Shown piece after piece: positions 8,614 to 62,292 of a DNA stretch of 64,000 nt. Within the stretch, counting starts at the first letter, position 1. Each line of letters begins with the position of its first letter. The notes beneath the pieces were generated by a model that did not search any database, was not told the origin of the DNA, and saw only the letters and a list, made by a program, of their open reading frames with translations. Made by a program: the position numbers and the translations under genes. Source of the DNA: Candidatus Magasanikiibacteriota bacterium. Lineage in GTDB: Bacteria > Patescibacteriota > Patescibacteriia > Magasanikbacterales > UBA922. The stretch is from assembly GCA_041665025.1 (NCBI GenBank), contig JBAYJP010000001.1, positions 110,555 through 174,554 of the forward strand. Direction: 5' to 3'.

Positions 8614-8631
8614 ATAATCTCATCGCGTATA

Positions 8632-8745
8632 CAACTCAAAAGTCAAATCTCAAAACTCAAATTTGGAACTCAAAACCTGTAAACTTTTAAGTTTGAAGTT
8701 TATATTTTGACTTTTGACATTTGAATTTTGAATTATTTGATGGTG
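8632..8745. repeat. palindromic intergenic repeat, family D (tcaaaagtcaaaact ... agttttgacttttga words)
   Basis: Word-like inverted repeats. Related copies occur at 54125-54240 and 55150-55238. Confidence 0.6.
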
Positions 8746-9751: not shown

Positions 9752-9822
9752 TCGGAGATCGTCTAATGGTAGGACAGCAGACTCTGAATCTGCTTATCCT
9801 GGTTCGAATCCAGGCCTCCGAG
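9752..9822 (+). tRNA. tRNA-Gln (anticodon CUG)
   Basis: Hand-folded cloverleaf: acceptor TCGGAGA/CCTCCGA with U1-A72, D-arm GTCT..GGAC, anticodon stem GCAGA/TCTGC with loop CTCTGAA, T-arm CCTGG-TTCGAAT-CCAGG, discriminator G. CCA is not encoded. Confidence 0.8.
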
Positions 9823-9985
9823 CTACTAAATGTAGTAGACTCTTCCGCCAGAGGCGGACCAGCCTTGGGCTGGGAATCCATTTATCTTGCCTGCCCGCCG
9901 AAATGGAGGGGTTCAAATCCAAGTCCTCGAGCAAATCTGCTTATCCTGCCTGTCCGCCTTTGGCGGAGTGAGAATCCAGGCCTCC
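9823..9985 (+). repeat. degenerate echoes of the tRNA-Gln 3' half (tRNA-derived fragments; possible integration scar)
   Basis: ctgcttatcctg and aatccaggcctccgagc recur at 9937-9985, with weaker copies gggctgggaatcca and ggaggggttcaaatccaagtcctcgagc. The region is GC-richer than its surroundings. Confidence 0.5.
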
Positions 9986-9991
9986 GAGCAA

Positions 9992-10015
9992 AAATCCCCT
10001 CTTCGGGGATTTTTT
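9992..10015. terminator. hairpin aaaatcccctcttcggggatttt (copy 1 of a direct repeat); bidirectional terminator
   Basis: Perfect stem-loop with A-run and T-run flanks between convergent genes. An identical 24-mer recurs at 12722. Confidence 0.65.
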
Positions 10016-25714: not shown

Positions 25715-25848
25715 ACATTCTTAATGTACCATAAATAGAGTTTTTTTCAAGTATGGTATACATACTAGAAAAAATTCTTACCTTCAATCCTTTACAAGTC
25801 TCTCTCTATTAACTATAATTTCTGCAACCCGCATACCGCGGGCAGGAG

Positions 25849-26100
25849 GTGAAACCCACCATGAACGGGAGGTGGTGGGAACAATTCCCGTGGGAGGTGT
25901 TTTTCCTCTTCGCCATCCTGGCGGTTCCGTGTCTGGCGGATGCTTTTAGTTCGCCAAACCCCGCCGAGATGGTAAAACTCCCTCCGTTGTTCGTCGGCCT
26001 TGAGTGCTTGGCTGGCGGACTTCTCATATCGCTTCTGCATGTACGCGACGAACGCCGCGATAGAAAGAAGCGGTACCTGCAGCAGAGCCAGGGCTGCTAA
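25849..26100 (+). CDS. small hydrophobic protein on GC-rich mini-island A
   Basis: GGAGG SD 9-11 nt upstream of the ATG. About 60% GC in an AT-rich genome. Followed by the hairpin terminator aacgccc...gggcgttttttt (26130-26165). The opposite-strand ORF starts with GTG inside the terminator and is rejected. Confidence 0.45.
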   Translation: MKPTMNGRWWEQFPWEVFFLFAILAVPCLADAFSSPNPAEMVKLPPLFVGLECLAGGLLISLLHVRDERRDRKKRYLQQSQGC

Positions 26101-26215
26101 CTCCTCGAACCCTGGCTTGATTCCTAAATAAAACGCCCACACAAAAGTTGCGGGCGTTTTTTTATTTACTATAATAGCAAAAACTAGAAAACAGCTAATT
26201 TAAGTGCTCGAATGA

Positions 26216-41447: not shown

Positions 41448-41582
41448 AAAACATTAATTTAAAAGATTAAGACAGATGGTATAGTAGCAAAAAAACGCTT
41501 ATTTGTAAATAAAAAAAGCTATACATTTTCTTGACTTTTCTGTATGTTATGATAACATCTTTCCTAGGAAAGGAGGCAACAG

Positions 41583-41777
41583 ATGGCTGACGAAGAAAAA
41601 GAGGCGAAAGCCCCGACCTCGTCGGGTGACGAGAAGAGAAAGGCCCTCCTCCGGGAGAAGGCAGCCCTGGAGGCCTACCTCGCGTTTCTCGAGACCGCGA
41701 ATAAGGCGGCGGATCAAGAACCGCCGTTCGAAGTCCCCGCCCGGTACGGAACCGGCACGACCACGGATCTTAAATGA
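41583..41777 (+). CDS. small hydrophilic protein on GC-rich mini-island B
   Basis: AAGGAGG SD 6-7 nt upstream of the ATG. About 62% GC. Charged coiled-coil-like 64-aa product. Confidence 0.4.
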   Translation: MADEEKEAKAPTSSGDEKRKALLREKAALEAYLAFLETANKAADQEPPFEVPARYGTGTTTDLK

Positions 41778-42060
41778 GCCCTTCTAGCTCGTGCTTCCCC
41801 CTAACTTATTAGTTCTTTGATAGATTAGGAAGGAAACTTGCATGAGCGGACGAAAAAAATAGTTCTTGTAACCAAAAACAACCATAAAAGGTTGTTTTTG
41901 AAAATTCGTAAATTGAAAATTTATTTGTATCCCTGCCTGCCGGCAGACAGGGAATCCCTTTCTTAAAGATATATTTTTCAAAAAAAAAGGGATTCCTCCA
42001 CTCATCCCGATTTCGCTTCGCTATATCGGGATTCGGTCGGAATGACAAATGTAAACTAAA

Positions 42061-47279: not shown

Positions 47280-48889
47280 TTCAAATTATACAAGGTATGA
47301 TCTTTGAAAAACATTTTTTCTTCTAAAGAAAGCCCAAACTGTCCCAGATAATCAACAGTGTTTTGATAATGTGCCTCGTCCAACTTCGGAGTGAGATAAT
47401 AGACTGGATTTCCCGCAAAAACGAGTTTACCCAATGCCTGACCCACCCGAGAGTCAAAAAAACGGACAATTACTTGCCTTTCAGGCCATACAAATTTATC
47501 CTCTCTATCAGATACGATTATAGCATGGGTTTGCGTGCTTGCCAAGATGTCTTTTTTGACTAATTCTACATATTTTAACTGTCCTCGCACAGCCAAAATT
47601 CCATCAACTCCTCTAAACGCTGCATTATAAGACAATAAAGCCATACCAGACAAGACAATCACTCCAAGCAGCCAAGCCCTTTTTTTCTGGGCTATACCCT
47701 GCCAAACACTCCCCACAAACGGCAACATAAGGATAAAAATAGGCAACCAATAGCGTGTGTAGGCAACACCTATTGTCTTCATGCTATAGAGCGTGTCTGC
47801 ACTACTTCCATAGTAAATAAAAAGAAATGATGAAACGAAAATACAAACTATTGCGTATATTTTTTGTGCACGAGTCAAAATTCCTTTTTTCCAATTAAAT
47901 ATAAAAAATGCAAATCCAAACAGTGCGGGAACTGTGTACCACCATTGTATATTGATAAAATAAAACCAAACACTTCGCACAATCATGCCAACACTAACAC
48001 CAAAAGGAAATAAAAATGAATACCAATGTGAAACTCCAATAGAACGAGAGGTAATATATGCACCAATTGGATTTCCATACACCTGTATGTTAAACCACGC
48101 GTATAACCCGATAAAAATTAAACTCGTTATAATCCACGTGAGCAATCGTGAAAATGAAATTTCTTTTCTGTAGGCTATAATGACAATACACATTGCAAGA
48201 CCAATCCATACAATTTCATTTGGCCGCATCAAAATACCAAGCATAAAAACCGACATTCCCAAAATATCGTTTACCATCATCGAAATCCGTTCAAACCTGC
48301 CTGCCGGCAAGGCAGGTCTGTTAAATCTGTGTTCTATTATCATCTTCAAGGGATTCACTAACAAAAACCAAATTCCTATCAACAACAAACTCACAGACGG
48401 CACATTATGAAACATACTTCGTGCCGTGTAATAAAAAAGCACTGGCTGAAAAAATAATAATAGCGAACTGTAGAACGCAACTTCTTTATTGAATATCTTT
48501 TTTATAATTCCATAAAACGCCCACACACCCAAAATTGCAAGAACGGATGTCAAAAACACCATTGCATTCATACCAACTATTTTTGCAATAAGTCCATACA
48601 TCATGGGCATTCCCAAAAATCCAACAGGTAAAATTTCTTTTCCTCCATTTTCTTCTACATAGGTACTGCGCGGATGAATAAATTCATTCAATTCTCCATA
48701 ATCTTGTGGCAAGGAATACGAAAGTTTATTTTCTTTCGCCACTGTGCCAGTAAATACATAATTTGCTGTTTCATCGGGCGAATTAAAAATTCCCGGCACT
48801 GAAAAATTTAAATAATTATATAAAACAAAAAATACTATTGAAAAAATAAGTAGGATGATTTTATGTTTGTTAAGAAAAAAATTATTCAT
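47264..48889 (-). CDS. polytopic membrane protein, GT-C-like (ArnT/PMT-type glycosyltransferase candidate)
   Basis: More than 10 TM helices. It carries the in-frame palindrome cctgcctgccggcaaggcagg (48296-48320) encoding PALPAG. Confidence 0.5.
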   Translation of the reverse strand: MNNFFLNKHKIILLIFSIVFFVLYNYLNFSVPGIFNSPDETANYVFTGTVAKENKLSYSLPQDYGELNEFIHPRSTYVEENGGKEILPVGFLGMPMMYGLIAKIVGMNAMVFLTSVLAILGVWAFYGIIKKIFNKEVAFYSSLLLFFQPVLFYYTARSMFHNVPSVSLLLIGIWFLLVNPLKMIIEHRFNRPALPAGRFERISMMVNDILGMSVFMLGILMRPNEIVWIGLAMCIVIIAYRKEISFSRLLTWIITSLIFIGLYAWFNIQVYGNPIGAYITSRSIGVSHWYSFLFPFGVSVGMIVRSVWFYFINIQWWYTVPALFGFAFFIFNWKKGILTRAQKIYAIVCIFVSSFLFIYYGSSADTLYSMKTIGVAYTRYWLPIFILMLPFVGSVWQGIAQKKRAWLLGVIVLSGMALLSYNAAFRGVDGILAVRGQLKYVELVKKDILASTQTHAIIVSDREDKFVWPERQVIVRFFDSRVGQALGKLVFAGNPVYYLTPKLDEAHYQNTVDYLGQFGLSLEEKMFFKDHTLYNLKVHSQ

Positions 48890-48957
48890 AATGCTTGACC
48901 GAAACTATATAAAATGATAGAACATGATAAACCTAAGGCCGTGGAAAGGAGGACACC

Positions 48958-49662
48958 ATGGCCAAGCGCGTGAGACGCGCTCGTAGTGTGACCGGTGTCC
49001 CCACCCGGCCACAAGACCCGCTTCACGAGTGGCTCGGTATCACCGGGCTACTCATGAAACACGAGGTGACCGCGAACACCGTTACGGTTGTTCGTGGAAT
49101 CCTCGTTCTGCCGGTGATCATACTGGCAGGATTCGGCTTCAGTGGGGCGGCGTTTATTCTCCACCTTGTGAGCTGGTGGGGCGACGCCGTGGATGGTTCG
49201 GTCGCGCGCGAACGGCAGCGATGCGGCTACGTCGATAATCGGGATTTAGGGGAGTATCTTGACCCGATGGTCGACAAGGCTGCATGGGTGGCAGAGGCAA
49301 TGTTTTTACCTTTCGCCGCCCAAGCTGAACTCCGTCCGACGTGGGTGGTGGTAATCGCTATCGCGGCGATGTGTGTGCTCGTCCTCATCGAGGTTGCACT
49401 CGGCATCGTCCGGTGGCAAGATTACCACGCTAACACCAAGCAGACTACAGATGCGCCCAAACTCAACCTTGGGGCGCGCTGGTCAGGCAAGGTGAAGATG
49501 GTGCTCGAGGTCGCAGGACTCTCGACACTAATCCTTACCTCGTCCGACGAGGCTACTTGGTGCGTCCACGTGTGGGCGTGGGCGCTCGCGGCTGCTATGC
49601 CACTCGCCTCGCTCAGCCTGCTCCAAAAGATCTGGAGCAGGAAGGCTATAGTGGCAAACTAA
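48958..49662 (+). CDS. CDP-alcohol phosphatidyltransferase family protein on GC-rich island C
   Basis: Catalytic motif DAVDGSVARERQRCGYVDNRDLGEYLDPMVD (D-G-x2-A-R...G...D...D). AAGGAGG SD 5 nt upstream. About 62% GC versus about 32% in the flanks. Confidence 0.7.
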   Translation: MAKRVRRARSVTGVPTRPQDPLHEWLGITGLLMKHEVTANTVTVVRGILVLPVIILAGFGFSGAAFILHLVSWWGDAVDGSVARERQRCGYVDNRDLGEYLDPMVDKAAWVAEAMFLPFAAQAELRPTWVVVIAIAAMCVLVLIEVALGIVRWQDYHANTKQTTDAPKLNLGARWSGKVKMVLEVAGLSTLILTSSDEATWCVHVWAWALAAAMPLASLSLLQKIWSRKAIVAN

Positions 49663-49795
49663 GGAGCTACGCCCCGCGGGATTGGAGGATCCCCGGGGCG
49701 ATTGCGTTTTATAACACAGATTGCACAGAATAAAAAGGAAACACGGATTACTATTTCGGTGTATTCCTTGTCATTCCGTGTAATCCGTGTTCTAT

Positions 49796-54124: not shown

Positions 54125-54240
54125 GCATAATTCAAATCTCAAACGTCAAAAGTCAAAACTGCAACTAAAAATTTAAAAGTTTATATATTTGAGTTTTCAT
54201 TTTGAGTTTTGAGATTTGACTTTTGAATTTTATTTGCACC
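54125..54240. repeat. family D palindromic element (overlaps the 3' end of the methyltransferase gene)
   Basis: ctcaaacgtcaaaagtcaaaactgcaactaaaaatttaaaagtttatatatttgagttttcattttgagttttgagatttgacttttga. Its right half encodes the methyltransferase C-terminus KIQKSNLKTQNENSNI. Confidence 0.6.
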
Positions 54241-55146
54241 TATCGTCCAATGCCATCCTAGATGCTTAAACCCTGGAATCTTGAATAACATTTCATCAAC
54301 CGCCACGATTCCTTTTTCCAACCATAATGGCAAAACGATTCTCTTTTTAAGTTTGAATGCGCGAAAGGTAAATTCCAAAATATATTGTATCCATCCTGCA
54401 AACAACCACATAGGACGTACCGAAACTTTTTCCCATTTTCCTTCATGCAATACATAATTTATTTTTCTATAAGAAAATCCTGTCATTTCAGCGTCTGCGT
54501 GAGATACATTGTGTTCATCAGTGTGAGTCAGTCGTGACATGATGGGACGAATTATTTTCAGAGGCAAAAAATATGTTTTATTTGGCTCAACCCAAATACA
54601 CAGTTTGCCACCAGATTTCAAAACACGCGCAAATTCTTTCAAAGCTTCGCCATAATCTGAAAAATGATGCCAGACGGCGACCATATACAGTGAATCAAAC
54701 GTATTGTCTGCAAACGGCAAGTGCATACCATCTGCCGCAACATAGGTAGCATTTGTAGAATGTAATTTTGTAGAAAGTCGTTCCAGTGTTTTGGAAGAAA
54801 TATCAGACAACACCATTTTGTAATCAGGTAGGAAATGTTGCGCGTCATGTCCGCTCCCTGCGCCAATTTCCAAAATCAGACTGCCGGGTCGCAATTCTTT
54901 TATTGCACTGTGCAATCGAGTGTGATAATACACATTTCTCCATGCATTGAGCTGGTGCACGTTGTTGGCATCATCTTCCAAATGATCGTGATACTCTGCT
55001 TCTTCCTTTGCAAGTTCACCTAGTTCAGTTGGTAAGGCAACAATGACATTATTTTTCTTTTCATATACTTTTCCACATGAACAAATATAGCTTTGTCCGG
55101 GGATAAGCTCTTTCATTTCATTGTGACAGTCGGTGCAGATAAACAT
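54181..55146 (-). CDS. class I SAM-dependent methyltransferase with N-terminal zinc-ribbon
   Basis: CTDCHNEM...CSCGKVYE ribbon and motif I LEIGAGSGHDAQHF. Flanked on both sides by family D elements. Confidence 0.75.
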   Translation of the reverse strand: MFICTDCHNEMKELIPGQSYICSCGKVYEKKNNVIVALPTELGELAKEEAEYHDHLEDDANNVHQLNAWRNVYYHTRLHSAIKELRPGSLILEIGAGSGHDAQHFLPDYKMVLSDISSKTLERLSTKLHSTNATYVAADGMHLPFADNTFDSLYMVAVWHHFSDYGEALKEFARVLKSGGKLCIWVEPNKTYFLPLKIIRPIMSRLTHTDEHNVSHADAEMTGFSYRKINYVLHEGKWEKVSVRPMWLFAGWIQYILEFTFRAFKLKKRIVLPLWLEKGIVAVDEMLFKIPGFKHLGWHWTIGANKIQKSNLKTQNENSNI

Positions 55147-55149
55147 ACT

Positions 55150-55238
55150 TTAAATCTCAAAATTCAAATATCAAAAGTCAAAACTACAACTAAAAACTTA
55201 AAAGTTTATAGTTTTGAGATTTGACTTTTGAGTTTTCA
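55150..55238. repeat. family D palindromic element (immediately upstream of the methyltransferase start)
   Basis: aaatctcaaaattcaaatatcaaaagtcaaaactacaactaaaaacttaaaagtttatagttttgagatttgacttttgagttttcaa. Confidence 0.6.
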
Positions 55239-55636
55239 ACGCTCAGTATACCACATTTTAGAATAAAAAAACTACTTTTCTATAGTAGTCATTCGTGCTG
55301 ATATGGAGTGTGTCGCGCGCCCGGTGACGGCGGCGGAACGCCTAGCGACATCCAGAATTGGATGCCACCGTCACCGGGACACGCGCGGATCAGCGATCGA
55401 AGGCCTTGCCGCTTCCGGTTCTGCTCGCGATGTACGCGCATCGGCACTGCCGTGCCTCCTCGCGACTTGCGTGCGAACCGCTGCAGAAGCGACACGCCTT
55501 GACCCGCCGATTCTTGCTCTTGCTGGGACGAGGCATCCCAACCTCCTTCCTCGCGCGCCTCCGTGGCGCGCACAATGGTTCACATCATACACAAAAAAAG
55601 TCCAGATGTCAATCTGGACTGTAAAAAAATACAAAA

Positions 55637-55782
55637 CCCCGTTCGCACAAGTCACGTGGTCGCGAAGCGACTTTACGTGACTGTCACGTGTCCGCCCAAA
55701 GCGGATTTACGTGACATAACCTCCCCCACACTTCTACCAAATATCTGATAAAAGTATGGGCGAGTGCGAACGGGGTCGTTGC
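55637..55782. promoter_or_regulatory. putative operator/iteron region: 12-bp inverted repeat (ccccgttcgcac / gtgcgaacgggg) enclosing repeated ACGTG-containing sites
   Basis: gtcacgtggtcgcgaagcgactttacgtgactgtcacgtgtccgcccaaagcggatttacgtgaca has TTTACGTGAC x2 and GTCACGTG x2. It lies inside GC-rich island D, downstream of the 55829..56104 gene. Confidence 0.3.
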
Positions 55783-55828
55783 ATCGCCCTCTTGTTTTCG
55801 GTGGTGACCGAGCTTTCATGATCCCCCC

Positions 55829-56104
55829 TCACCCGCCCAAAAAATACCTCGGGCTGTATACCGGCTTGCGGCATGCGGCGCACTTGCCGGCGTTCTTGTC
55901 CTCGTCGTGGACGAGAACTGCGCCGCATCCGGTGCACCGGATGACCTTGGCGATGTTCGCCGGCGCCCTTGAGCAGTTCGCGTACTTGTTGACGTGGACG
56001 TGTACCTTCTGCCCCTTCCCCTTCTTCTTGTTCTTCACCTTTCCCCCACTGTTCTTCCAGCCCTTCTGTCGTTTCTTCTCACCCGTCGGGTTGATCTGCG
56101 CCAT
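55829..56104 (-). CDS. small Lys-rich protein with C-terminal CxxC...CxxC zinc-ribbon, on GC-rich island D
   Basis: GAGGAGG SD 6 nt upstream of the ATG. 91 aa: basic N-terminus, then IRCTGCG...KCAACRK. Confidence 0.45.
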   Translation of the reverse strand: MAQINPTGEKKRQKGWKNSGGKVKNKKKGKGQKVHVHVNKYANCSRAPANIAKVIRCTGCGAVLVHDEDKNAGKCAACRKPVYSPRYFLGG

Positions 56105-56301
56105 CGATCCTCCTCGTCAGCCGCCCAATATGTCGGGCGGGAAAATGGTTGCAACTATCCTCTCAAACTCTCTCTCTCTTGTCAACATCGTTTGCACATT
56201 TCATCAACAACTATCACTAAACATGGGTTGATAAATAAAGGTTAGTAAGGTAATATACGTGGGCGTTGGGTTAAGAAACTGGAAACCAGAATATATATCC
56301 G

Positions 56302-57774
56302 GTGTCTGGTTTCCTAACCCATCGCCCTTCCCATATGGTAGATATTACAGAGCTCGAAAAAATCCCCCCTCAAAACCTCGAAGCTGAAATGTCTTTACTC
56401 GGGTCTATTTTGCTTGATAAAGAAGCGCTTTTGAAAATCGCTGACATGATTGATAGTGATGATTTTTATAAATCGATACACAGTGACATTTATGAGACCA
56501 TGCTTGAGTTGTATGAAAAAAATGAACCCATAGATGTCTTGACCATGGGAAACAGATTGGAAGAAAAAAAGTTATTAGAAAAAATTGGTGGACGAAGTTA
56601 TTTGGTAAACTTATCAAATACCGTTCCTACTGCTTCGCATGTTCCCAAATACGCAGAAATTATTCGAAGAAAATCTACTTTGCGAAAACTCTTGCGTTCT
56701 GCGCAAGAAATATCACGATTGGGATACAAAGAAGATGCGGAAAGTGTCGAGTACATACTTGATGAAGCGCAACAACAACTATATAGCGTCACGCAAAAAC
56801 ATTTAAAGCAGACATTTACGCCCATTAGAGGAATTCTAAGCGATGCGTTTGAACGTATTGATGAATTGCATAGAGAAAAAGGAAAACTCCGCGGTGTGCC
56901 AACCGGATACAAACAATTGGACAACTTGCTTGCGGGATTGCAAAAGTCAGACCTCGTAATTCTCGCTGCTCGTCCATCAGTTGGAAAAACATCTCTCGCG
57001 CTTGATATGGCGCGCAATGTCGCAGTCCGCGCAAAAGTACCGGTCGGCATATTTTCGCTTGAAATGAGTAAGGAACAACTCGTCGATCGTCTACTCTGCG
57101 CTGAAGCTGGTGTTGATTTGTGGAAAATGAGAACAGGAAATTTATCTGACCGCCCAGATAGTGATGATTTTCCACGCATTGGACATGCGATGGGCGTGTT
57201 ATCTGAATCCCCTATTTTTATCGATGATTCTCCGGGAAATAACGTCATGCAAATACGCACGAAAGCTCGACGCTTGCAAGCAGAACATGGTCTCGGACTG
57301 GTAGTGATAGACTACTTACAACTCATGGAATCGCCAAATTCAAAAGGCAATGACAATCGTGTTCAGGAAGTCGCGGAAATCAGTAGAAATTTAAAAGGCC
57401 TTGCGCGTGAACTCAATGTGCCTGTGCTTGCGTTATCACAGCTATCACGTCTCGTAGAACAACGCAAGCCGGCAATACCAAAACTTTCTGATTTGCGCGA
57501 ATCAGGATCTATTGAACAAGATGCTGATGTAGTAATGTTTATATATAGAAAGTCCGCAGACAGAAACTACCGATTGGAAGATGTACCGCCCGATGAACGA
57601 AGTATTGCAGAAATTCATATCGCAAAACATAGAAATGGTCCGACCGGCATGGTGCGTGTATTTTTTGATGAACAGCGTGCGAGTTTCAGAAATTTGGACA
57701 CTCAGATGGGAAATTTTACCCCTCCACCACAATCAATGCCTCCACAAAAGACAAATTCGGTGCCAGCGTTTTAA
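56302..57774 (+). CDS. dnaB: replicative DNA helicase DnaB
   Basis: N-terminal NLEAEMSLLGSILLD, RecA-like domain with GKTSLALD and the H4 motif. A possible true start is MVDITEL at about 56335. Confidence 0.9.
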   Translation: MSGFLTHRPSHMVDITELEKIPPQNLEAEMSLLGSILLDKEALLKIADMIDSDDFYKSIHSDIYETMLELYEKNEPIDVLTMGNRLEEKKLLEKIGGRSYLVNLSNTVPTASHVPKYAEIIRRKSTLRKLLRSAQEISRLGYKEDAESVEYILDEAQQQLYSVTQKHLKQTFTPIRGILSDAFERIDELHREKGKLRGVPTGYKQLDNLLAGLQKSDLVILAARPSVGKTSLALDMARNVAVRAKVPVGIFSLEMSKEQLVDRLLCAEAGVDLWKMRTGNLSDRPDSDDFPRIGHAMGVLSESPIFIDDSPGNNVMQIRTKARRLQAEHGLGLVVIDYLQLMESPNSKGNDNRVQEVAEISRNLKGLARELNVPVLALSQLSRLVEQRKPAIPKLSDLRESGSIEQDADVVMFIYRKSADRNYRLEDVPPDERSIAEIHIAKHRNGPTGMVRVFFDEQRASFRNLDTQMGNFTPPPQSMPPQKTNSVPAF

Positions 57775-58238: not shown

Positions 58239-58838
58239 ATGTACGCTCAACCCATAGATAAACTAATCAAAGCATTTTCCAAGCTTCCAAGCGTCGGCCC
58301 GCGTACAGCCGAACGTTTTGTTTTTTATCTTCTTAAATCAGGGAAAAAGGATGCTGGAGAACTTACCCTGGCATTAAAAGAACTAATTGAAAATGTAAAA
58401 AGCTGTGAAGTCTGTTGGAATTTTTCTGATACAAGTCCGTGTGAAATTTGTACTGACACAAGACGGCATTACAAGACAATGTGTGTAGTTGCCGAGCCTC
58501 AAGATTTACAGACTCTTGAAAAAACACATCACTATCATGGCGTGTACCATGTATTGCGCGGTACACTTGCACCCGACGATGAATATATCATGAAGACGGT
58601 CAAAATCAATGAGCTCATGAATCGCGTACAGAAAAATGAAGTGGATGAAGTAATACTTGCCTTAAACCCGGACATAGCTGGAGAGACGACCATGATGTAT
58701 TTACAAAAACAACTAAAAACTATCCGTCCTGATCTCAAAGTTACCAGACTAGCTCGCGGATTGCCTATGGGTAGCGACTTACAATATGCTGATGAAATAA
58801 CGATTGAAAGTGCACTAAAAAATAGAACTCAAAACTAA
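58239..58838 (+). CDS. recR: recombination protein RecR
   Basis: HhH LPSVGPRTAERFVFYLL, a C4 zinc finger (CEVC...CEIC) and a Toprim domain. Confidence 0.9.
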   Translation: MYAQPIDKLIKAFSKLPSVGPRTAERFVFYLLKSGKKDAGELTLALKELIENVKSCEVCWNFSDTSPCEICTDTRRHYKTMCVVAEPQDLQTLEKTHHYHGVYHVLRGTLAPDDEYIMKTVKINELMNRVQKNEVDEVILALNPDIAGETTMMYLQKQLKTIRPDLKVTRLARGLPMGSDLQYADEITIESALKNRTQN

Positions 58839-58868
58839 AATCCTCCCGAATTTGGGAGGATTTATTTT
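58839..58868 (+). terminator. hairpin aatcctcccgaatttgggaggatt + T-run (recR terminator)
   Basis: Perfect 9-bp stem followed by TTATTTT. Its 3' arm (GGGAGG) doubles as a possible SD for the next ORF. Confidence 0.6.
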
Positions 58869-59096
58869 ATGGGAACGGCTGGCCTCGAGCATTTGCTTGG
58901 CTCGAGTGGGTGGGTTGTGGAGCCGAATGGAGCTCCTGCCCAAGACCAGCCGATCGACTGCCACAGGTTGTTCGCTAGCGACCCTGTATCGGAATTTCCG
59001 GGGACGGGAAGCTTTCCGTCCTGCCCAGGGGCTGCAAAAACCTACGACAAATCGACGAAGCACCTTATCACAAAGACGATAAAATGTCGACAATAA
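58869..59096 (+). CDS. small hypothetical protein on GC-rich island E
   Basis: ATG 10 nt after GGGAGG. About 58% GC. Followed directly by the terminator aaaacccgcgtctttgcgggttttt. Coding status is uncertain. Confidence 0.35.
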   Translation: MGTAGLEHLLGSSGWVVEPNGAPAQDQPIDCHRLFASDPVSEFPGTGSFPSCPGAAKTYDKSTKHLITKTIKCRQ

Positions 59097-59125
59097 AACC
59101 CGCGTCTTTGCGGGTTTTTATTTTT
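59096..59125 (+). terminator. rho-independent terminator aaaacccgcgtctttgcgggtttttattttttt
   Basis: Perfect GC stem plus a long T-run. Confidence 0.65.
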
Positions 59126-61253: not shown

Positions 61254-61386
61254 ATAATAATTTTCATGAGTATTTTACTCCACTTACGTTTCCTTGACAA
61301 CTCTCTCTCTCTTTGTTAGCGTTATCTCAAGTTTCTCGGTAGACGCCGAGAATTTTGCCGAATGACGCACAGCGCGGAGGACGTCG

Positions 61387-61662
61387 ATGAGTACTCTCTT
61401 TTACATCGGGGCACTGGCAGGGTGGATCGCCGTCGGCTTCTACGTCGCCGCCATGTGTCTCCCCAAGGTCGACCACACGATGTTGGGCAAGCTGTTGAAG
61501 TGGCTCGATGTGCTCCCCAGTCCGAGCAACGTGATCCTCAAGTTCATGGCGGGGTTCATGCTCGCCATCGCTGTCGTCATCCTCCTGCTCAGCTGGGGTG
61601 CGGTCTGGCCGCTGTCCATCCCCATCGAGCGCTTCGTCTACTGGTGGCGACGGCGGGCGTGA
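61387..61662 (+). CDS. small 2-TM membrane protein on GC-rich island F
   Basis: GCGGAGG SD 6 nt upstream of the ATG. About 62% GC. Followed by a second SD plus a 16-codon Cys-rich micro-ORF and a 12-bp inverted repeat (aaacccacctgc...gcaggtgggttt). Confidence 0.4.
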   Translation: MSTLFYIGALAGWIAVGFYVAAMCLPKVDHTMLGKLLKWLDVLPSPSNVILKFMAGFMLAIAVVILLLSWGAVWPLSIPIERFVYWWRRRA

Positions 61663-61802
61663 ACAACTTCCGACTTCGGTCGGCGCGGTTCAAGGAGGGA
61701 CGCGATGGAAAGGACGACGAAACCCACCTGCGACTGCGTATGTGTCTGAATATCAGACATATACGAAGGAGATGCAGGTGGGTTTTGTTGTATAGAAATA
61801 TT

Positions 61803-62108
61803 TTAATATTTTCTTCTTTTCAATTCTTTACACAAATCCAAAATATCTTGCAACATATATTCCCTTCTAAATAATACTTGATCATTGGTAAACCTTTTTG
61901 TTATATAACCATGAATTCTAAACCAATGATCTCGATTCCTGTCATATTCAATTTGTTGATAATGTATCGGACCATCAACTTCAACAATCAATTTGCACTC
62001 ATGACAATAAAAGTCCGCTATGAACGGACCAATACTAAATTGCCTACGAAATTTATACCCTCCCAAACGTCTATCTCTCAATTCATACCATAAAACTTTT
62101 TCTGCCAT
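61803..62108 (-). CDS. DUF559 endonuclease-domain protein (Vsr-like fold)
   Basis: ...LWYELRDRRLGGYKFRRQFSIGPFIADFYCHECKLIVEVDG... The start is set at MAEKV; the upstream extension in the ORF track runs through a GC-rich multi-hairpin element. Confidence 0.7.
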   Translation of the reverse strand: MAEKVLWYELRDRRLGGYKFRRQFSIGPFIADFYCHECKLIVEVDGPIHYQQIEYDRNRDHWFRIHGYITKRFTNDQVLFRREYMLQDILDLCKELKRRKY

Positions 62109-62199
62109 TGTCTGATTCCTGCGTAATCTCCTGCGCCTTTCAATAAAGTGAGGTTTATTTTTGAAAAAGTCGGAATATCGAATCACAAAAGAATAATTT

Positions 62200-62292
62200 A
62201 GAAACGTTCCTCCCCTAGTAGGGGAGGTCAGGTGAGGTTGAGGCAGCCATAACCTCACCCTGTCCCTCTCCTACCGAGGAGAGGGAACGTGC
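62200..62292. other. GC-rich triple-hairpin structured element enclosed by an outer stem (candidate structured RNA or MITE-like element)
   Basis: cgttcc [cctcccctagtaggggagg] tca [ggtgaggtt-gaggcagccat-aacctcacc] ctgt [ccctctcc-taccga-ggagaggg] aacg. Three perfect or near-perfect hairpins inside the outer stem cgttcc/ggaacg. Confidence 0.4.

Follow-up and report, generated by a model that had tools for sequence, protein, structure and literature searches.

We analyzed a 64,000-nt window from a metagenome-assembled genome (MAG) of Candidatus Magasanikbacteria, a lineage of the candidate phyla radiation (CPR, Patescibacteria; GenBank assembly GCA_041665025.1, 282,871-bp contig JBAYJP010000001.1, positions 110,555–174,554), focusing on a GC-rich stretch at approximately positions 55260–56185 of the window, here called island D. 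Island D is probably a self-contained cassette of two genes read from the minus strand, with hairpins in the 5′ untranslated regions (5′UTRs), a conserved branched RNA forming the 3′UTR and terminator of the first gene, a terminator overlapping the promoter of the second gene, and a second structure at the 3′ end (Table 1). A region with the appearance of a DNA control element is recognized as RNA, with support from comparison, the annotation gains a small gene that had been missed, and an orphan protein with four cysteines (Cys4) becomes the product of a conserved gene. The cassette and its RNA appear to be new and without a described family; two hairpins within the RNA belong to a wider family that appears undescribed but resembles known palindromic elements.

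The structured part of island D is RNA and not an array of DNA-binding sites. Approximately 50 nt past the end of the first open reading frame (ORF), which encodes the 91-aa protein p91, begins a 141-nt segment that folds into a four-way junction of a closing stem (stem P1) and three hairpins (A, B, and C) and is directly followed by a U-tract. The 211 nt 3′ of the p91 ORF fold at −102.2 kcal/mol on the minus strand (z-score −9.25 against shuffled sequences) and at −83.6 kcal/mol (z-score −7.6) on the plus strand. Hairpin A contains four G·U pairs on the minus strand that turn into A·C mismatches on the plus strand, where the hairpin fails to fold (−2.3 kcal/mol, z-score −0.7). The initial annotation of this region, made from the sequence alone, had listed several repeats, all of which are present with small corrections: the 9-bp hairpin starts at 55599 (not 55598), the long inverted repeat measures 13 bp (not 12; 55636–55648/55764–55776), and the second inverted repeat (55320–55334/55364–55378) measures 15 nt (not 14) and is 93% complementary, its lone mismatch being a U·G wobble on the minus strand. 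Because of the fold energies, the G·U pairs of hairpin A, and this wobble, we assign the RNA to the minus strand. The motifs described there as "ACGTG iterons", TTTACGTGAC (twice) and GTCACGTG (twice), pair up into hairpins C and B, each of which has a GUCACGU/ACGUGAC base, an AAA bulge, a top of 5–6 bp, and a lone unpaired C. The upper stems of the two hairpins differ at every position, and each is still self-complementary. Stem P1 with the U-tract, a GC-rich stem followed by a run of U, looks like an intrinsic terminator. A search of the whole window against Rfam 15 at the gathering threshold matched only a tRNA at 9752, and a search of island D at E-values up to 10 gave only chance microRNA and small nucleolar RNA matches (15–17 bits), so that a known RNA family covering the region, the outcome that would have overturned the initial annotation, was not found. 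K-turn, hammerhead, group II domain V, bulge-helix-bulge, and attC elements were rejected by reading the sequence, without dedicated tools, as their defining nucleotides are absent.

The junction is conserved in a second island. The gene of the only p91 homologue lies on an unrelated 1312-bp contig (L197) with different AT-rich flanks. L197 aligns with island D across the promoter, 5′ hairpin, ORF, stem P1, hairpin A, hairpin B, and the U-tract GGGGUUUUGU. It also keeps the module of terminator, second promoter, and second 5′UTR, located 3′ of an inserted DUF559 gene and reaching to an ATG at the contig end. In hairpin A, five base pairs are the same in the window and L197, six have changed on one side and still pair, five have changed on both sides, and none is broken; stem P1 shows one compensatory change and one wobble. 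These compensatory changes argue for a conserved RNA structure in the 3′ element. L197 lacks hairpin C, the difference being an exact 32-nt indel, and its hairpin B retains its top (UCCGC/GCGGA) above a decayed base. Given the clean indel, stem P1 and hairpins A and B form the conserved core, to which hairpin C, as a unit of the hairpin family described below, seems to have been added later. As a separate observation, the DUF559 (endonuclease-like) gene, at positions 845–1207 of L197, splits the two halves of the island D homologue and is flanked by two extra hairpins.

The conservation of the junction would also fit an RNA that is functional in itself, as a cis-regulatory platform, as a ribonucleoprotein partner bound by p91 for autoregulation or packaging, or as a processed small RNA. 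Such a role is unlikely overall, but it overlaps with the two-gene cassette and is compatible with it. In its favor, stem P1 and hairpin A have been kept by compensatory changes over approximately 38% protein divergence, the fold scores are extreme in the window (z-score −9.25) and on L197 (z-score −6.5), and a very basic protein lies directly upstream in both islands. On the other hand, the element has no separate promoter before it, hairpin C is dispensable, the base of hairpin B has decayed on L197, and binding by p91 would be conjecture.

The first gene of the cassette encodes p91 (locus tag WCW16_00860), which the initial annotation had correctly described as a CxxC…CxxC protein led by a Shine–Dalgarno (SD) site. 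It consists of a Lys/Gly-rich N-terminal tail followed by CxxC-14-CxxC (C57, C60, C75, and C78) and is very basic. An exhaustive HMMER search of 1.84 billion representative proteins returned a sole homologue, P0122 (83 aa, 62% identity, E-value 1.7e-22), in which these four cysteines are invariant and C44 is not conserved. p91 thus has the two conserved CxxC knuckles expected of a zinc-ribbon protein. The GC content at third codon positions (GC3) is 0.84 for p91 and 0.82 for its L197 homologue, in comparison to 0.34–0.35 in the adjoining host genes. With 62% identity, four invariant cysteines, and this GC3, p91 is a real gene, the comparison being to a single second sequence. A word-index protein search with p91 found only p91 itself, its Pfam zinc-finger matches were all below their cut-offs, and neither p91 nor the second protein of the cassette, p48, had a significant match in Pfam, PHROGs, NCBIfam, PADLOC, or a sequence search of the PDB. 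An AlphaFold2 model of p91 from the single sequence had a predicted local distance difference test (pLDDT) score of 48; with two sequences, pLDDT reached 72–79 for residues 51–80 alone, and a Foldseek comparison of the model to the PDB gave no match with an E-value ≤ 0.001. The composition of p91 and p48 suggests that both bind nucleic acids.

Upstream of p91, the putative promoter P1 has a consensus −35 box and an uncertain −10 box, either GAGGAT at 17-nt spacing or GATAGT at 20-nt spacing. The promoter block TTGACAAGAGAGAGAGA-TTTGAGAGGATA is kept on L197, where homology starts at the −35 box.

The second gene lies in the approximately 550 bp that the initial annotation had considered to be without a convincing ORF. 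There, an SD-led ORF of 48 aa (p48) follows a near-consensus promoter, P2 (TTGACA-17-TATGAT, matching 11 of the 12 consensus positions), the −35 box of which sits in the loop of the terminator-like 9-bp hairpin between the two genes. The mechanical ORF list had included this frame from an earlier TTG start, giving 61 aa (p61); p48/p61 had no homologue in the word-index protein search. On L197, the terminator hairpin has kept the TTGACA in its loop with different stem letters, and the SD site and ATG of the second gene stand at the same spacing as in the window. The branched hairpin 3′ of p48 folds, with DNA parameters, at −32.5 kcal/mol (z-score −6.7) on the minus strand and at −30.2 kcal/mol on the plus strand, and the P2 transcript is strongly structured (z-score −6.0). 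An AU-rich terminator, missed by the consensus scan because its stem holds fewer than three G–C pairs, ends the cassette and adjoins the promoter region of the neighboring methyltransferase gene. The two genes have separate predicted promoters and terminators and do not form an operon.

Table 1. Features of island D, listed in the direction of transcription (coordinates are positions in the window).
Feature	Position	Strand	Basis or remark
Promoter P1	56154..56185	-	Sequence reading
Promoter P1, −35 box TTGACA	56185-56180	-	Followed by (AG)6 at 56179-56168
Gene 1 5′UTR hairpin, CCGCCC-8 nt-GGGCGG	56140-56121	-	Stem kept in L197, loop different
Gene 1 SD site, AGGAGG	56114-56109	-	Sequence reading
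ORF p91, 91 aa	55829..56104	-	SD-led; one homologue; GC3
Four-way-junction RNA, 141 nt	55636..55776	-	Fold and L197 conservation
Closing stem P1, 13 bp, 100% complementary, GC-rich	55776-55764 with 55648-55636	-	Repeat search
Hairpin A, 16 bp, AU-rich	55760-55725	-	Fold and covariation
Hairpin B	55715-55683	-	Fold; family model R1
Hairpin C	55681-55651	-	Fold; family model R1
U-tract UUUUGUAUUUUUUU	55622..55635	-	Directly 3′ of stem P1; GGGGUUUUGU kept in L197
Terminator-like hairpin, then T7	55620-55599	-	Terminator scan; 9-bp perfect stem, 55599-55607/55612-55620
Promoter P2	−35 TTGACA 55612-55607, −10 TATGAT 55589-55584	-	Consensus scan
Gene 2 5′UTR hairpin, GCGCGCC-ACGGA-GGCGCGC	55571-55553	-	Sequence reading; kept in L197
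Gene 2 SD site, AGGAGG	55547-55542	-	5 nt upstream of p48 ATG; kept in L197
ORF p48, 48 aa, basic, CxxC-12-CxC	55390..55536	-	SD, ATG, GC3 0.73
Branched 3′ hairpin	55312..55387	-	Closed by 15-nt inverted repeat with CGCGCG/CGCGCG extension
AU-rich terminator, ACUACU-7 nt-AGUAGU, then U6	55265..55289 (stem 55289-55271)	-	Sequence reading

Taken together, we propose that transcription from promoter P1 would yield an mRNA carrying a 5′ hairpin, then a strong SD site and the coding sequence of the basic Cys4 protein p91. This mRNA would end in the four-way junction with its 13-bp GC-rich stem and U-tract, which may terminate transcription intrinsically and also block 3′ exonucleases. The second hairpin with its T-run, carrying the P2 −35 box in its loop, would back up termination. 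Promoter P2 would then start a second short mRNA with a 5′ hairpin, an SD site, the basic Cys-rich p48, the branched 3′ hairpin, and the final terminator. Hairpins B and C are most likely secondary insertions or duplications captured in the 3′UTR, where they would add stability; one of them is absent from L197.

Island D is an insertion, a lineage-specific and self-contained cassette. It lies between a methyltransferase gene (54181–55146, minus strand) and dnaB (56302/56335–57774, plus strand). In three Magasanikbacteria relatives (DnaB approximately 81–82% identical), the gene order is glycosyltransferase, dnaB, ybaB, recR, rplU, DUF192, Glycos_transf_4, and clpB, and the gap between the glycosyltransferase gene and dnaB is just 80–280 bp; both island D and the methyltransferase gene are absent from this site. 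No match to island D was found in phage or plasmid records, and viral contigs contained no relatives by protein or by promoter pattern. The elevated GC content noted initially was confirmed (58–68% in island D vs. 38.8% in the window). Together with the difference in GC3 (0.84 in p91 vs. 0.35 in host genes), this composition would be expected of a chimeric assembly, or of DNA recently transferred from a GC-rich organism and without function in the current host, yet such an origin is extremely improbable. A contig of 1359 bp from the Joint Genome Institute (JGI; L001) is 100% identical to the window over both island D junctions, and a mis-join in the assembly is therefore unlikely. Moreover, the L197 island likewise lies in AT-rich flanks behind the same AT-rich promoter, island D bears a hairpin typical of CPR, and the gene of another GC island in the window has a syntenic orthologue, also GC-rich, in a relative.

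Two minor features were observed in the surroundings of island D. An AT-rich motif of approximately 30 nt (tttgagatttgacttttgagttttcaa-like) occurs at three places (55210–55242, 8625–8657, and 54205–54231), one copy forming the 3′ end of the methyltransferase ORF and another the spacer adjoining island D. A long inverted repeat, GGGCGTTGGGTTAAGAAACTGGAAACCAG … CTGGTTTCCTAACCCATCGCCC (56262–56330), just 5′ of the dnaB start, may be a 5′UTR structure.

Hairpins B and C are members of a hairpin family, "CACGUAAA", which we defined by a 7-bp GUCACGU/ACGUGAC base, a 3-nt AAA bulge, a Watson–Crick top of 4–8 bp, a loop of 3–6 nt, and a lone unpaired C. A covariance model (R1) applied to the 64 kb detected only these two hairpins, end to end, with 50.4 and 46.7 bits (E-values 6e-11 and 6e-10). 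The initial annotation had proposed motif frequency as a check, and this held for the composite motif GTCACGTAAA-N12-20-CACGTGAC, found twice in the window vs. 0.00 times expected, but not for CACGTG alone, which is not enriched (11 found vs. 6.8 expected). In public contigs, the composite motif was found at a minimum of 119 metagenome loci and 72 genome loci. Among the pattern matches of the genome scan, 51 of 73 came from Patescibacteria, including Magasanik-, Peregrini-/Peri-, Parcu-, Levy-, Zambryski-, Nomura-, Gottesman-, Andersen-, and Saccharibacteria. The variable middle formed a perfect stem of at least 4 bp in 37 of the 51 patescibacterial matches vs. 2.2% of shuffled middles; the non-CPR matches were mostly stemless and seem to be chance matches. 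When 28 distinct hairpins were aligned, the 7-bp base was fixed, the AAA bulge and the single C were present, and all six upper-stem pairs changed on both sides. As these 28 were chosen for folding, the proportion of matches that have a stem is the statistic free of this bias. Searches of 20 related loci and of a canonical module gave no Rfam family covering the hairpins, and we found no description of the family in the literature.

The family is associated with genes of stable RNAs. A tRNA or transfer-messenger RNA (tmRNA) gene is no more than 150 nt away from 39 of the 73 non-redundant hairpins that have a good stem, in comparison to approximately 4.5% of bases that close, and the commonest distance is 26–31 nt. 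The spacer belongs to a second, outer hairpin of the same type, of which it forms one arm; this outer hairpin starts at the tRNA CCA end (CCA|CGUAAA...), with the inner hairpin enclosed in its loop. Relative to the strand of the gene, the AAA-bulge form stands upstream and its mirror, the UUU form, downstream, with 38 cases to 0; the tandem-mismatch subclass adds 17 to 0, for a total of 55 to 0. One copy (locus L178) separates the 3′ end of the 23S rRNA gene from the 5S rRNA gene. The hairpin also precedes small GIY-YIG ORFs: 16 of 103 hairpins have the start of such an ORF within 250 nt (approximately 1% expected), always in the same orientation. The upper stems contain 523 Watson–Crick, one GU, and six AC pairs; being almost purely Watson–Crick, as would be expected of a DNA palindrome or of an element acting on both strands, they make the family look like a true palindrome. 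For the same reason, assigning an RNA strand to the family by G·U counts was ruled out. Pairing between tRNA leader and trailer was rejected as the general role of the family, as most of the tRNAs have a downstream module only and the tops of the flanking hairpins covary independently (locus L141). Separately, at five loci (L047, L075, L077, L172, and L008), a conserved sequence (...aacggtgaaccc...accgtgggaa) runs right up to a family hairpin and may be the 3′ end of a stable RNA without an Rfam name.

We tentatively regard the hairpin as an undescribed, Patescibacteria-wide element that brackets stable-RNA genes (tRNA, tmRNA, and 5S/23S) with mirror polarity, starting at the CCA end. It may be a conserved signal, read by a CPR-specific factor, for the processing or insulation of stable-RNA precursors, or else a mobile palindrome homing, along with small GIY-YIG nuclease genes, to stable-RNA gene ends. 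On this view, island D would represent a capture of the element into the 3′UTR of an orphan mRNA, and it would be one of several promoter-bearing, GC-rich orphan cassettes persisting in AT-rich CPR genomes. To our knowledge, CPR bacteria are not yet genetically tractable and their stable-RNA processing is poorly known; the family offers a conserved signal that can be searched for, a concrete handle on this processing, and a mark useful in annotation.

The family data also bear on the operator/iteron explanation of the initial annotation, in which double-stranded DNA sites bound by the zinc-ribbon protein would control a small replicon or an addiction module. The layout that inspired it is real: two near-identical motifs of 8–10 bp, in inverted pairs approximately 32–34 bp apart, stand beside a small basic Cys4 protein. 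Nevertheless, we consider the explanation very improbable. In an iteron block, the whole unit would be expected to be conserved; here, the interiors of the units differ between copies yet remain self-complementary, both in island D and in the 73 non-redundant relatives. The same motif occurs in many phyla without p91; as the hairpins are CPR-wide and p91 has one homologue, p91 cannot be the general binding partner of the family. Neither p91 nor p48 has a Rep, toxin, or antitoxin domain in Pfam, NCBIfam, PHROGs, or PADLOC, there is no plasmid or phage match, and the two genes, with separate promoters and a terminator between them, are not arranged as the operon of an addiction module. The part of the initial annotation that stands is the structured RNA, for which the minus-strand fold and the compensatory changes on L197 speak.

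The context of hairpins B and C is unusual for the family. The nearest tRNA gene is 45.8 kb away, and there is no outer CCACG..CGUGG hairpin. Elsewhere, family members in their usual context lie 26–31 nt (or 62–132 nt) from a tRNA, tmRNA, or rRNA gene with a nested outer hairpin, an arrangement not seen in island D. If the hairpins nevertheless marked a stable-RNA gene, the stretch 55290–55620 behind P2 would be a structured noncoding RNA and p48 fortuitous. The AAA-type hairpin, always upstream of the stable RNA (55 to 0), points below position 55651, where the strongly structured P2 transcript (z-score −6.0) is located, and p48 has no homologue. We still consider this doubtful and clearly less probable than a functional junction RNA: the SD site and ATG are present at the same spacing on L197, the GC3 of p48 (0.73) suggests coding, Rfam gave no match, and the usual module with 26–31 nt between hairpin and RNA end is missing.

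Several points weigh against the two-gene cassette with its terminating 3′ structures. The comparative support comes from one homologous contig. p48 lacks comparative support, because the L197 contig stops at the start codon of the second ORF. The promoters and terminators are recognized as consensus matches, and at canonical spacing promoter P1 shows no good −10 box. A conserved, branched structure of 141 nt is seldom required for intrinsic termination, and the conservation of hairpin A hints at a role beyond termination. Finally, the polarity rule of the AAA-type hairpins would predict a stable RNA in 55290–55620, and the P2 transcript may act as RNA. With these points considered, the self-contained two-gene cassette remains the probable reading, in which the promoters and terminators would work as their sequences suggest and the 3′ structure would serve as stabilizer or terminator.

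We compared island D and the hairpin family to known systems. Yeast mitochondria possess GC clusters, and GC-rich PstI palindromes reportedly flank tRNA genes in the mitochondria of Neurospora crassa (work attributed to Yin, Heckman and RajBhandary, 1981). Like the CPR family, these are short, conserved, GC-rich palindromic hairpins in an AT-rich genome, located beside tRNA and rRNA genes, with a restriction-site-like palindromic core (CACGTG in the CPR family), and suspected to be both mobile and RNA-processing marks. The CPR family differs in its sequence, its bacterial host, the strict mirror polarity at a fixed 26–31 nt, the nested outer and inner hairpins from the CCA end, and the associated small GIY-YIG ORFs. 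Repetitive extragenic palindromic sequences and bacterial interspersed mosaic elements (REP/BIME) of proteobacteria are likewise imperfect intergenic palindromes of 30–35 nt, in which the base is conserved and the bulge asymmetric. Those in 3′UTRs stabilize mRNA and aid termination, and the elements are gained and lost as discrete units, as seen for hairpin C with its clean 32-nt indel. In contrast to REP/BIME, the CPR family has no GTAG head, varies in the upper stem from copy to copy within a genome, and prefers the ends of stable-RNA genes. REP/BIME come in many copies per genome together with a cognate RAYT (Y1 transposase); the 64 kb of the window contain two copies of the CPR hairpin, and no such transposase was recognizable among the window ORFs read by eye.

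At the level of the cassette, the GC-rich stem followed by a U-tract is shared with intrinsic terminators and structured 3′UTRs; unlike in usual terminators, this stem closes a conserved 141-nt four-way junction. Phage "morons" are also independent promoter–gene–terminator units of foreign composition located between resident genes, but island D lies outside any phage context and matched nothing in phage or viral collections. The CxxC-14-CxxC pattern and Lys/Gly-rich tail of p91 are reminiscent of small zinc-ribbon proteins with basic tails, e.g., zinc-binding ribosomal proteins, but p91 has no significant sequence or fold match of any kind in Pfam, NCBIfam, PHROGs, PADLOC, the PDB, or by Foldseek. 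Integron attC sites have inverse-core and core sites (RYYYAAC/GTTRRRY) and a nearby intI. They were rejected as a match to the hairpins, which have the conserved base GTCACGT/ACGTGAC instead, and no integrase was recognizable among the window ORFs read by eye. Finally, the tandem hairpins of CPR genomes recall the tandem interspersed guide RNA (TIGR) arrays of CPR bacteria and phages, which consist of variable stems and of loops with box C/D motifs and spacers (PMC12045711). A TIGR array was rejected, as the architecture is reversed: hairpins B and C have a conserved stem base and loops of 3–5 nt. No Tas gene was recognized among the window ORFs, which were read by eye without a domain-library scan.

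Island D is one of several short islands at 55–68% GC in the window. Four more (55–64% GC) were observed at 25779–26168, 41513–41870, 48878–49783, and 61264–61811. Each combines a sigma-70-like promoter rich in AT with a strong SD site, a small ORF of high GC content, and a terminator hairpin. No family match was obtained for three of these ORFs, and two of those look like membrane proteins. The promoters at 25790, 56185, and 61290 have TTGACAA/TTTACAA in common, with a run of (AG)n or (CT)n behind it in the spacer; promoter P1 thus resembles those of two other GC islands, which carry (CT)n. Among the island proteins, the only significant domain-library match was that of a CDP-alcohol phosphatidyltransferase (48958–49662), which has a syntenic orthologue with 49% identity in a related Magasanikbacterium (L196, 440–1120). 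This orthologue has a GC content of 0.53 in a locus of 0.41, and since it is also GC-elevated, high GC seems to persist over long divergence without decaying. GC-rich cassettes with their own promoters keep a GC3 above 0.8 in genomes of 38–42% GC, which is testable across genomes. The island at 61264 is abutted by a DUF559 gene (61803–62258).

Two further loci in the window were recorded. The stretch 58808–59124, between recR and rplU, reaches 59% GC, has terminator-like hairpins on both sides, and has no Rfam match; it is absent from two relatives, and the third (L196) has a 99-aa ORF without a family match in the same gap. Within 9752–10000, GC-rich hairpins extend over approximately 170 nt behind the tRNA-Gln gene (9752–9823), after which the 3′ part of this gene is present a second time (atctgcttatcctg ... 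aatccaggcctccgagc, approximately 9935–9990), an arrangement that looks like the scar of an insertion into a tRNA gene.

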